A stretch of 43,955 nucleotides of DNA from UHGV virus genome UHGV-0152227; one strand, given 5' to 3'. Within the stretch, counting starts at the first letter, position 1; each line of letters begins with the position of its first letter. This stretch comes from a virus. Below, one piece after another: positions 8,476 through 10,885 of this stretch. The notes beneath the pieces were generated by a model, which worked only from the letters and a program-made list of their open reading frames with translations, was not told the origin of the DNA and searched no databases. The position numbers and the translations under genes are program-made.

Positions 8476-9186
8476 ATGGCTAATGCTCAAACTGCCATCT
8501 TCAAATTTGAATCTGTTAACCCTATCCGTTCCATCATTATCGATGGCCAACCATGGTTTGTAGCCCAAGACGTTTGTAGTGCGCTGCGTATCCAAAACGT
8601 CACCCAAGCACTTGAAAAACTGGATGATGATGAAAGGTCTATGTTCAACATAGGGCATGAACATCGTGCAATTTTTGACAGCCGAGTAAAAGAGATCAAC
8701 ATCATCTCCGAGTCAGGCCTCTACACACTGATCCTCCGCTGCCGCGACGCAGTGACACCAGGCACTATCCCCTACCGCTTTCGTAAATGGGTTACAGGTG
8801 AGGTTCTTCCTCAGATCCGCCGCACCGGAAGTTACATTAAAAACTCGCTCCCGCAGGAAGAACGCATAAAGATGGTTGCCGACCAGGTTGCAAACGCCAC
8901 AGCATCAGCAGTGATGCAGGCAATGAAGATAGAGAACAAAACCTACAGCGCCCCACTGAAGCCCGGCTACCGTAGCCTGATTCATTCGCCGTCTGGTGTT
9001 CTCGGCCTGACGGAGAACTCACTGCTGATGAATCTGCTGAACCAGTTACAGGAAGACGGGCACGACGTATCGGGCGCGGCGGCGGAGCTGACCACCATGT
9101 TCTGCTACATCGTCGGTGTGAGCAAATGCCTGCGTGATATCCAGACGCACGCGGAGTACATCAACGACAAGGCTGGGTTCTTCTGA
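8476..9186 (+). CDS. Antirepressor, BRO-N domain with shared C-terminal module
   Basis: ATG 8476 with GGAG RBS; BRO-N motifs (FKFESVNPIRSIIIDGQPWFVAQDVCSAL, IISESGLYTLILR, WVTGEVLPQIRRTGSY); C-terminal ~80 aa near-identical to the 41902 protein. Confidence 0.8.
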   Translation: MANAQTAIFKFESVNPIRSIIIDGQPWFVAQDVCSALRIQNVTQALEKLDDDERSMFNIGHEHRAIFDSRVKEINIISESGLYTLILRCRDAVTPGTIPYRFRKWVTGEVLPQIRRTGSYIKNSLPQEERIKMVADQVANATASAVMQAMKIENKTYSAPLKPGYRSLIHSPSGVLGLTENSLLMNLLNQLQEDGHDVSGAAAELTTMFCYIVGVSKCLRDIQTHAEYINDKAGFF

Positions 9187-9210
9187 CGGGCGGCGGCACA
9201 GGGATGTGCC
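8944..9210 (+). repeat. Direct repeat copy A (~267 bp, ~95% identical to 42379-42646): antirepressor C-terminal module plus downstream hairpin
   Basis: Aligned by eye with copy B; only a few mismatches; ends in palindrome GGCACAGGGATGTGCC. Confidence 0.9.
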
Positions 9211-9230: not shown

Positions 9231-9273
9231 TTGCAGACTGTGGGTGAATAGCGTACTATTACCTCAAGGGTAA
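9231..9273 (+). promoter_or_regulatory. Promoter-like element with operator palindrome TTACCTCAAGGGTAA
   Basis: TTGCAG-N17-TACTAT followed by operator 9259-9273 of the same family as the immunity-region operators. Confidence 0.45.
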
Positions 9274-9333
9274 ACGGATTGGTTTCATTTTTATTAATCC
9301 GTGTAATGAACTTATGAGATATGAGGTAATGTC

Positions 9334-9513
9334 ATGCGAAACGAAAAATTGCAGATGCGTAGAGCGCAAGCTGCCGCAAGACGTTCTTTCAATGGAAGCG
9401 TAGAGTACGTAAAAGTTACTATGACAAAAGATCACGCAAGTCGCGTATCCCGCGCTTTCTTTGATTCTCGTAACAATAAGGAAAATTATGAGTTCGTCTG
9501 CGTCGCAGAATGA
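9334..9513 (+). CDS. Small basic protein (59 aa), candidate antitoxin or regulator, upstream gene of a two-gene cassette
   Basis: ATG 9334 with GAGG RBS 6 nt upstream; overlaps downstream gene by 26 nt; contains that gene's RBS; below the ORF-track size cutoff. Confidence 0.5.
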   Translation: MRNEKLQMRRAQAAARRSFNGSVEYVKVTMTKDHASRVSRAFFDSRNNKENYEFVCVAE

Positions 9514-10033
9514 TAAAAATCAAATTGTCAGATATAAGGGTCGAGTATTGCATACGCAAAATTTCTCGGCCCTTTGTGCATCTGATCTTGAGCTGAAGAA
9601 AGTATCTGATGCCTTTACCCAGTATTGGAAAACGGGATACCATCCATCTCTTGGTAAAGATGCTGCATTTGCTCGTCCGACAGAAATGCTTAAACTAAAT
9701 GTCAGGCATACTCATGTCGATAACCAAGACTATATTCCAGAAGATAGTGATAAAAAACACACTGGTAAAAAATCATCTTGGGATGCATGGAAAAATATAG
9801 CGTCTGTGCAAGTAAAATGCATACCAACAAGTGATTGCTTTTTAGTTTATTCGGTAAATCACAATCGTGATGCGCTGGTTATGTTTTTTGTTGACGCAGA
9901 TGCCCACAACATAACTGAGCAAGAAGAGTTTAAAGAGGCAGCAATCACTATCAGTTATCAATTCTTTCAGAAAACAAAAACAGAACCAATGCCTTTAGAA
10001 GAAGATCTTTTTTCTGATAAATGGAAGGAATAA
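9488..10033 (+). CDS. Candidate toxin, distant resemblance to YafO-type mRNA interferases (tentative)
   Basis: ATG 9488 with AAGGA RBS; AT-rich; recalled YafO-like motifs (F-x2-Y-x3-G-x2-P-x2-G-[KR]-D-A, V-x-H-x-H, LVY...A-hydrophobic run); followed by strong terminator. Confidence 0.45.
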   Translation: MSSSASQNDKNQIVRYKGRVLHTQNFSALCASDLELKKVSDAFTQYWKTGYHPSLGKDAAFARPTEMLKLNVRHTHVDNQDYIPEDSDKKHTGKKSSWDAWKNIASVQVKCIPTSDCFLVYSVNHNRDALVMFFVDADAHNITEQEEFKEAAITISYQFFQKTKTEPMPLEEDLFSDKWKE

Positions 10034-10055
10034 GCCCGCGTTGCGGGCTTTTTTG
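10034..10055 (+). terminator. Rho-independent terminator
   Basis: GCCCGC-gttg-CGGGC followed by TTTTTTG. Confidence 0.8.
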
Positions 10056-10126
10056 TGGACGAAACAAAAGTCAGTGCTACACTCATTGACGCCACATTGA
10101 GGTGGCTTATAGATGGAAATTTCACA

Positions 10127-10288
10127 ATGAAAAAAGCATTTGCTGCACTGTTCGTTTTGTTGTCTCTGGTAGCTTCAACTCAGGCCTTTGCCGGTCGTTG
10201 TCAGCACGACAGCGATACTGCCGCTGACGGCTCCCGCTGCGGTGGGCGTTCTGCGGATTCCCGCCCTGGCGGCGGTGGCATTCGTTAA
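10127..10288 (+). CDS. Small secreted peptide (signal peptide plus ~31-aa Cys/Gly/Asp-rich mature part)
   Basis: ATG 10127; MKKAFAALFVLLSLVASTQAFA signal-like N-terminus; flanked by terminators; weak RBS. Confidence 0.45.
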   Translation: MKKAFAALFVLLSLVASTQAFAGRCQHDSDTAADGSRCGGRSADSRPGGGGIR

Positions 10289-10294
10289 AAACAA

Positions 10295-10310
10295 GGCCGC
10301 GAAAGCGGCC
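10295..10310. terminator. Hairpin GGCCGC-gaaa-GCGGCC; terminator for the minus-strand late operon, possibly bidirectional
   Basis: Perfect 6-bp stem; T-run on the minus strand (complement of AAAAACAA). Confidence 0.55.
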
Positions 10311-10311
10311 T

Positions 10312-10324: not shown

Positions 10325-10885
10325 CTACATTGATATATGATTCATAAAGTAGCTTAAAGATTTACTTCCCAGAAAAGAAATTTCTTTTCCTGGATATGTC
10401 GCAATAATTGAGCATGACTTATCCCCGTTAGAGGTAACAAATCCTGAATAACCTACTTGTTCTTTACCATTTTGTTGCTTGGCTAAAAAGTAGAGGTAGC
10501 TTATCTTTTTGCCCTCTGGGTAAAACTCTGCCAAACCAGTATCGGTGATTGAATATTTTATTCTCCCGCCTTGAGTAACGTTTTCCATCTCAAGTTTAGC
10601 TATGTCTTTTCTGTTGTATTCAGCATTGATTTTCCTTTCGAAATCAATGTTGTTTTCAAATGAGTAGGAAGCAACAGTCTGAATAGATGGGAACACGTTT
10701 ATCTGGATGCCTCCACAGTCGGCACAGGTATAAAGGTATGAATCAGATGGAATCCCCATAAAAGAAAACTGAGTTACCTTAAATTTATCGCTATCTCCAA
10801 AGTATTGAAGTTCGCATTTAACATTTTGCCCTGCAAAAGAAAATGCAGACATCAATATTGAAACAAAAAATATAATTGCCTTCAT
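10325..10885 (-). CDS. Secreted protein of unknown function, last gene of the late operon (possible moron or exclusion factor)
   Basis: N-terminal signal peptide MKAIIFFVSILMSAFSFA; AT-rich; abuts stop of upstream virion gene. Confidence 0.6.
   Translation of the reverse strand: MKAIIFFVSILMSAFSFAGQNVKCELQYFGDSDKFKVTQFSFMGIPSDSYLYTCADCGGIQINVFPSIQTVASYSFENNIDFERKINAEYNRKDIAKLEMENVTQGGRIKYSITDTGLAEFYPEGKKISYLYFLAKQQNGKEQVGYSGFVTSNGDKSCSIIATYPGKEISFLGSKSLSYFMNHISM

Follow-up and report, generated by a model that had tools for sequence, protein, structure and literature searches.

The stretch of DNA analyzed here (the window) is the 43,955-nucleotide viral genome UHGV-0152227, an E. coli prophage that belongs with epsilon15, phiV10 and TL-2011b in the genus Uetakevirus. 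Its accessory region carries a two-gene cassette at positions 9231–10055, which we consider probably to be a type II-like toxin–antitoxin (TA) module composed of a YafO-family toxin and a minimal antitoxin, operating under the control of the phage repressor. The assignment of the larger protein to the YafO family is already present in RefSeq and is not new; what is new is its obligatory pairing with a partner unrelated to YafN, together with an operator-linked promoter that travels with the cassette.

The cassette lies between two sets of minus-strand genes, for the tailspike (4936–7707) and for the ejection proteins (from 10888 onwards). An initial annotation of the window had described it as a compact AT-rich unit, and all of the elements it named were recovered at their positions, with a GC content of 0.37–0.41 within the unit versus 0.52–0.58 in the flanks. 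Escherichia phage TL-2011b (NC_019445) carries a matching stretch of 861 bases in the corresponding part of its genome, at 98.8% nucleotide identity, and its gp45–gp44 pair shows no difference of substance from the window cassette. There, the proteins are described by annotation only, gp45 as hypothetical and gp44 as a YafO family toxin (in full in RefSeq, 'type II toxin-antitoxin system YafO family toxin'). The full unit is found in 61 of 5426 complete E. coli genomes (~1%), including Shiga-toxin outbreak strains carrying TL-2011b; in RefSeq E. coli genomes the toxin gene alone is annotated under the match, and the 59-aa gene upstream of it is usually left unannotated. A scan of GTDB species-representative genomes with family patterns returned no confirmed locus, and a literature search found no functional work on the cassette, on TL-2011b gp45–gp44 or on phage YafO homologues.

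The downstream gene of the pair (9488–10033, plus strand), preceded by a ribosome binding site AAGGA at 9478–9482, encodes a 181-aa protein and is a candidate for an endoribonuclease toxin. YafO-type motifs had been noticed in it on first reading, and HMM searches, structure prediction and a fold search had been proposed as checks. The Pfam family YafO_toxin (PF13957) scores 26.0 bits (E = 1e-5) over residues 46–148, just above its cut-off of 25 bits; this is marginal for a lone sequence and as such counts against our reading. A profile of the close family detected only 70 relatives at E ≤ 0.001 among 1.84 billion representative proteins, and individual PF13957 matches were obtained for 39 of the 61 relatives aligned with E. 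coli YafO and the EC.W1-9 homologue. Finally, a 69-sequence profile of the family aligned with E. coli K-12 YafO over 122 columns, covering YafO residues 2–130 (hhalign 97.8%, E = 7.7e-13). Judged by these profiles, the 181-aa protein does belong to the YafO family, and the assignment made on first reading holds.

Of two AlphaFold models, the one based on 23 close homologues was poor (pLDDT 58); the one from the 69-sequence alignment was confident (pLDDT 92.3, pTM 0.87), and in it the protein is predicted to adopt the RelE/ParE (BECR) fold, the class that includes RelE and HigB. In a Foldseek search of PDB structures, HigB2 and YoeB ranked first, without significance. The predicted fold agrees with the published placement of YafO (PF13957) among BECR-fold mRNA-degrading toxins with an antitoxin–toxin gene order (PMC11980606). 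In an alignment of 61 sequences, E. coli YafO among them, Gly56 and His76 never vary, and Phe43, Asp58, Pro64, Ser115, Tyr121 and His140 are conserved in at least 90% of sequences. The conserved polar residues of this YafO clade form a candidate active site, with His76 and His140 as putative catalytic residues. The gene is under purifying selection, with a dN/dS of 0.06–0.09.

At 181 residues the protein is 49 residues longer than YafO (132 aa): it is extended at the N-terminus, has some 30 residues inserted, and ends in an acidic C-terminal tail, MPLEEDLFSDKW, that is strongly conserved. The additional length, with the insertion and the tail, counts against our reading. The tail itself (window 9989–10030, residues 168–181) is almost invariant in the close family, with M168, L170, E172, L174, F175 and W179 as its invariant positions, and is absent from E. 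coli YafO; it could act as a docking or autoinhibitory segment.

The upstream gene (9334–9513, plus strand), with a ribosome binding site GAGG at 9323–9326, overlaps the toxin gene by 26 nt in the window and encodes the candidate antitoxin, a basic protein of 59 aa (pI 10.0, net charge ~+4.6), as the initial annotation had it. This protein comprises an Arg-rich N-terminal segment, a conserved C-terminal strand–helix motif, KVTMTKDHASRVSRAFF, and an acidic tail. Comparison with four diverged copies gave a dN/dS of 0.18–0.24, by which measure the ORF is a real gene under purifying selection. When window positions 9334–9486 were compared with loci L044, L046, L047 and L052, the small ORF showed a dS of 0.44–0.82, versus 1.5 to >2 for the toxin gene (9515–10030); the lower value suggests extra nucleotide-level constraint on the small gene or separate recombination histories.

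The upstream protein had been judged unlike YafN/Phd antitoxins, and the searches upheld that judgment. It had no significant match in Pfam or NCBIfam, including none to PF02604, and hhalign of the partner family gave 0.3% against a single YafN and 0.1% against a 37-sequence YafN family, so that the cassette has no upstream antitoxin of the Phd/YefM (YafN) type. A profile of the partner family returned nothing from all PDB sequences, and PADLOC-DB v2 yielded no match for either cassette protein or for four neighbours at E up to 1. A DNA-binding domain of the sort found in autoregulating antitoxins was likewise not detected, and the Arg-rich N-terminus could still bind DNA. Two candidate relationships were considered and rejected. 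One was a ribbon-helix-helix or other DNA-binding fold for the 59-aa protein, for which there was no significant Pfam or NCBIfam match and no PDB chain. The other was kinship with YafN through an ungapped C-terminal pattern seen by eye (hydrophobic-x-x-S/T-x3-A/L-x2-I/V-S/T-R ... EF ... E), in which hhalign finds nothing; this pattern is an unproven lead only.

Turning to the pairing of the two genes, the toxin gene is immediately preceded by a small partner ORF in each of the 54 related loci examined (the window, nine loci obtained via protein look-ups and 44 from IMG/VR), and the two ORFs overlap in all of these except L008, where a gap of 58 nt separates them. Two small, co-oriented, overlapping genes are thus kept together across genomes, as is characteristic of type II systems, and the TA or abortive-infection architecture proposed at the outset extends to every related locus. 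The loci occupy several phage backbones: the Uetakevirus accessory region, a siphovirus tail module (L005, L008 and L009), lambdoid phages in which the cassette sits between lysis and terminase genes (L015 and L057), and a primase-bearing element of Pectobacterium (L016). The partners range from 52 to 139 residues in length and have unrelated N-termini, and all share a C-terminal module consisting of a short hydrophobic strand, S/T, an amphipathic helix (the KVTMTKDHASRVSRAFF motif in the window) and an acidic end. A shared C-terminal module carried on varying N-termini is what would be expected of a toxin-binding segment.

Broken copies of the cassette are present in a few genomes, namely P0040 (86 aa) and P0022 (114 aa). 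In the frameshifted copy, the small ORF continues after residue 32 in another frame through the toxin start; in the other, the toxin is truncated to 114 residues. Such decay is often seen in TA loci.

These data also bear on a reading in which the 181-aa protein, though of YafO fold, has diverged, is not toxic and serves some other function, and the small ORF is conserved as an unrelated leader or partner. The marginal Pfam score and the segments additional to YafO would fit such a protein, as would the want of a PADLOC model for either protein, which we count against our own reading, and the placement of both in PHROG families labelled as of unknown function (phrog_1651 for the toxin, phrog_6685 for the partner). 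A non-toxic protein would be harder to reconcile with the retention of YafO-clade residues, including two histidines and polar positions typical of an active site, with the very low dN/dS of its gene, or with the truncated and frameshifted copies. Moreover, invariable association with a small overlapping gene upstream is a hallmark of toxins requiring neutralization, and we regard the non-toxic reading as very improbable.

Expression of the cassette is framed by recognizable signals. A promoter-like element (9231–9259, plus strand) consists of a −35 hexamer TTGCAG (9231–9236), a 17-nt spacer and a −10 hexamer TACTAT (9254–9259). With 7 of 12 positions agreeing with the consensus, this promoter is weak, a point against the proposal, and it fell below the threshold of the promoter scanner and was not called; the −35 TTG and the −10 A..AT are kept in five diverged cassettes. 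Its geometry is that of the operator-bearing promoters at 8163–8206 and 37396–37437, and its layout corresponds base for base to the latter. Upstream, a hairpin, GGCACAGGGATGTGCC, followed by TTT (9195–9210, plus strand) lies just 3′ of the stop codon of a Bro-N/Ant-like gene and, from its sequence, is probably a terminator that insulates the cassette from upstream transcription. An 18-mer comprising hairpin and T's, GCGGCACAGGGATGTGCC, occurs twice in the window (9193–9210 and 42629–42646), each time just after the stop codon of a plus-strand ORF, and is probably a reused terminator. At the distal end, an intrinsic terminator (10032–10056, plus strand) is formed by the stem AAGCCCGC/GCGGGCTT, a GTT loop and a T-run. 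Its 8-bp GC-rich stem (10032–10050) starts inside the toxin stop codon, and the RNA fold is −15.4 kcal/mol (z −2.6). An inverted repeat in the 5′-UTR (9274–9303) was discarded as a structured element, being no better than shuffled sequences (z −0.6) and unconserved.

The promoter overlaps an operator, TTACCTCAAGGGTAA (9259–9273), with exact palindromic half-sites TTACC/GGTAA; the first T is shared with the −10 hexamer, and the site spans roughly −8 to +8. Allowing up to one mismatch, TTACC-N5-GGTAA occurs 14 times in the window versus 0.71 expected, and none of 100 shuffles reached 14. The sites are at 7812, 8192, 9259, 10509, 26711, 29838, 29856, 34300, 34362, 36264, 36601, 36649, 37361 and 37423. 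Most of them directly abut a −10-like hexamer. The abutting arrangement at 9254–9273 is also found at 8163–8206 before the Bro-N gene (site 8192) and at 37396–37437 before early genes (site 37423), and five sites flank the divergent regulatory genes at 36264–37437, around the gene for a 194-aa immunity repressor with two HTH domains (36719–37303, plus strand). The first reading of this promoter as one carrying the immunity operator is therefore well founded, and, by the placement of its operator over −10/+1, the cassette appears to belong to a phiV10-type repressor regulon. The 14 sites across the phage may be taken as a map of the presumed regulon, including sites before structural and late regions (26711 and 29838/29856).

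The 194-aa protein has the same sequence (100% identity) as the repressors in phiV10, phiv142-3 and vB_EcoP_ZX5, and overexpression of the vB_EcoP_ZX5 repressor abolished lytic growth (PMC9782041). From the arrangement of the sites, we infer that this repressor binds TTACC-N5-GGTAA and acts in trans on the cassette promoter. A literature search found no definition of a Uetakevirus operator; the paper describing the epsilon15 genome reportedly mentions a similar ATTACC...GGTAAT repeat. Phage phiv142-3 shares the initial 79 bases of the unit (hairpin, promoter and operator) at 96% identity, and in that phage they are followed by other small genes, with no toxin gene. Because the same promoter–operator drives other cargo in this cassette-less phage, the site belongs to the phage regulon; on such comparisons, the promoter–operator appears as a generic phage expression slot and not as a property of the antitoxin.

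Evidence from the other cassettes must be weighed against classical autoregulation, in which the 59-aa protein, alone or with the toxin, would bind TTACC-N5-GGTAA, and the likeness to the phage operator would reflect shared or mimicked specificity. Exact half-sites are retained 53–82 nt upstream of the small-ORF start in all 48 cassettes with a 59/60-aa partner, among which nine different central pentamers occur and the intergenic flanks are otherwise unalignable, as might be expected if the cassette itself made use of the site. The Arg-rich N-terminus of the 59-aa protein would suit this role. Additionally, the operator persists in the lambdoid prophages L015 (9773–9787; Kosakonia, CP158850.1) and L057 (9762–9776), and no homologue of the 194-aa repressor was found within 20 kb in L015, L016 or L057; simple control by a resident repressor thus does not explain the retention of the site in L015 and L057. 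The retention may be due to a matching repressor elsewhere in those hosts, to recent descent, or to use of the site by the small protein or its complex as well. The CI protein of L057 shares only a 29%-identical HTH segment with the 194-aa repressor. Its CI/Cro intergenic region (1763–1830) contains TTTACCCCTAGGTAAA and TATACTCCTAGGTATA, which have related half-sites with a 4-nt spacer, and cross-talk between immunity systems at L015 and L057 is possible. In the siphovirus tail modules, the cassettes of L005 (4778–4800) and L008 (4715–4735), which have a different short partner, lack TTACC/GGTAA and carry another palindrome, TGACG-N4-CGTCA, ~25 nt upstream of the small ORF; a change of site accompanying a change of partner would also be in line with autoregulation.

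However, the same operator is present at 13 other positions in the window, including the immunity region, and at the same promoter slot in Uetakeviruses without the cassette. Some 25 N-terminal residues that match no DNA-binding family would make a poor DNA-binding domain. Furthermore, EC.W1-9 and L014 keep a near-consensus operator at the same position in front of partners with entirely different N-termini (139 and 113 aa), which weakens the idea that the small protein or its complex uses the site. We consider classical autoregulation quite unlikely. A further proposal, which we hold to be doubtful, is that of a 'repressor-gated' TA unit that moves with an immunity-operator promoter and is on only when a certain class of phage repressor is lost; it would listen in trans to the repressor of a co-resident or incoming phage, or the 59-aa protein would share its DNA specificity. 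If this were true, such a TA unit would be wired into inter-phage immunity cross-talk and not into its own autoregulation.

The reading that we favor, a TA module under phage repressor control, may be outlined as follows. The cassette would be a portable accessory cargo of Uetakevirus-type (epsilon15/phiV10/TL-2011b) prophages. Its downstream gene would encode a YafO-family enzyme of RelE/HigB fold that, by homology, may cleave mRNA and arrest translation and so be toxic to the cell. The upstream, translationally coupled gene would supply a 59-residue antitoxin without a recognizable DNA-binding domain, whose C-terminal strand and helix may dock on the toxin and block it, by analogy with HigA2, RelB and PaaA2. 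In these antitoxins, disordered toxin-binding segments block the cognate toxins. The operon would be placed behind a standard phage promoter–operator slot, which would replace classical antitoxin autoregulation. As the site spans roughly −8 to +8, repression by occlusion is expected: in a lysogen, the 194-aa repressor would occlude the −10/+1 region and leave the cassette off or low. Where the repressor is absent or inactivated, through infection, induction or antirepressor action, the cassette would be transcribed.

Expression tied to loss of the repressor points to a role early on or during induction, or to a derepression switch, rather than to constitutive addiction, and silencing by the repressor in lysogens makes the usual TA roles (addiction, or abortive infection by the lysogen) hard to see. 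One alternative is a purely lytic-cycle early function, in which the phage, once infecting or induced, would use the RNase to destroy mRNA of the host or of competitors, with the small protein as its timer or inhibitor, and neither addiction nor defence would be involved. The promoter–operator design, which is common to the antirepressor-like neighbours and to early promoters and implies expression in the absence of repressor, accords with this alternative, as does the finding that all cassettes detected are in phage or phage-like contexts. Nevertheless, many close relatives of the window phage do not have the cassette, so lytic growth can proceed without it; it is distributed in the manner of a moron, and repression through a single operator may be leaky in lysogens. 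This alternative, which we rate as unlikely, concerns the role only and is compatible with a TA mechanism. Overall, we place less confidence in any particular biological role than in the mechanism.

Comparison with known systems places the cassette closest in toxin homology to YafN–YafO of E. coli K-12 (dinB-yafNOP), with which it shares the antitoxin–toxin order and the RelE/BECR fold class. Besides the difference in toxin length described above, YafN is of the Phd/YefM type, whereas the 59-aa antitoxin candidate has no Phd/YefM domain; and YafN–YafO is a LexA-controlled chromosomal operon, whereas the cassette is phage-borne and placed behind a phage operator. HigB2–HigA2 of Vibrio cholerae (PDB 5mje and 8a0x) represents the HigB/RelE ribosome-dependent mRNases. 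Its toxin shares 9% sequence identity with the cassette toxin, the gene order of higBA2 is reversed relative to the cassette, and HigA2 has an HTH DNA-binding domain, whereas the 59-aa partner has none. The nearest analogue in logic is PaaR2–PaaA2–ParE2 from E. coli O157 prophages (PDB 5czf), in which a small antitoxin without a DNA-binding domain is likewise accompanied by a separate regulator. In that system, however, the regulator gene lies inside the module, whereas the putative regulator of the cassette is the immunity repressor encoded 27 kb away, and the toxin family and probable target also differ.

Several genes around the cassette share its accessory character. An 86-aa ORF (7900–8160, plus strand) corresponds to a free-standing, paralogous version of the C-terminal domain found in the Bro-N/Ant-like protein encoded at 8461–9186 (plus strand); both match phrog_450, at residues 2–86 and 158–239, respectively. 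The two genes have their own operator-bearing promoters (sites 7812 and 8192), so that the accessory region would contain, with the cassette, three successive repressor-controlled units. On the other side, adjoining the cassette, are low-GC accessory genes for a 53-aa protein (10127–10288, plus strand; phrog_14503, 'membrane associated protein', moron category) and a 186-aa protein (10325–10885, minus strand; phrog_11983, unknown function), each with a signal-peptide-like N-terminus, and a bidirectional-looking terminator (10294–10311) lies between them.

Among RelE-type toxins, YafO is one of the most poorly understood: its structure has not been solved, and whether it depends on the ribosome is a matter of dispute (PMC11980606). 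The clade described here offers a confidently modelled YafO relative, a new and very small partner family that is missed by most genome annotations, and a TA operon whose control has apparently been handed to a phage immunity repressor. If confirmed, these features would add an antitoxin family to current catalogues and tie TA modules to the lysis–lysogeny switch.
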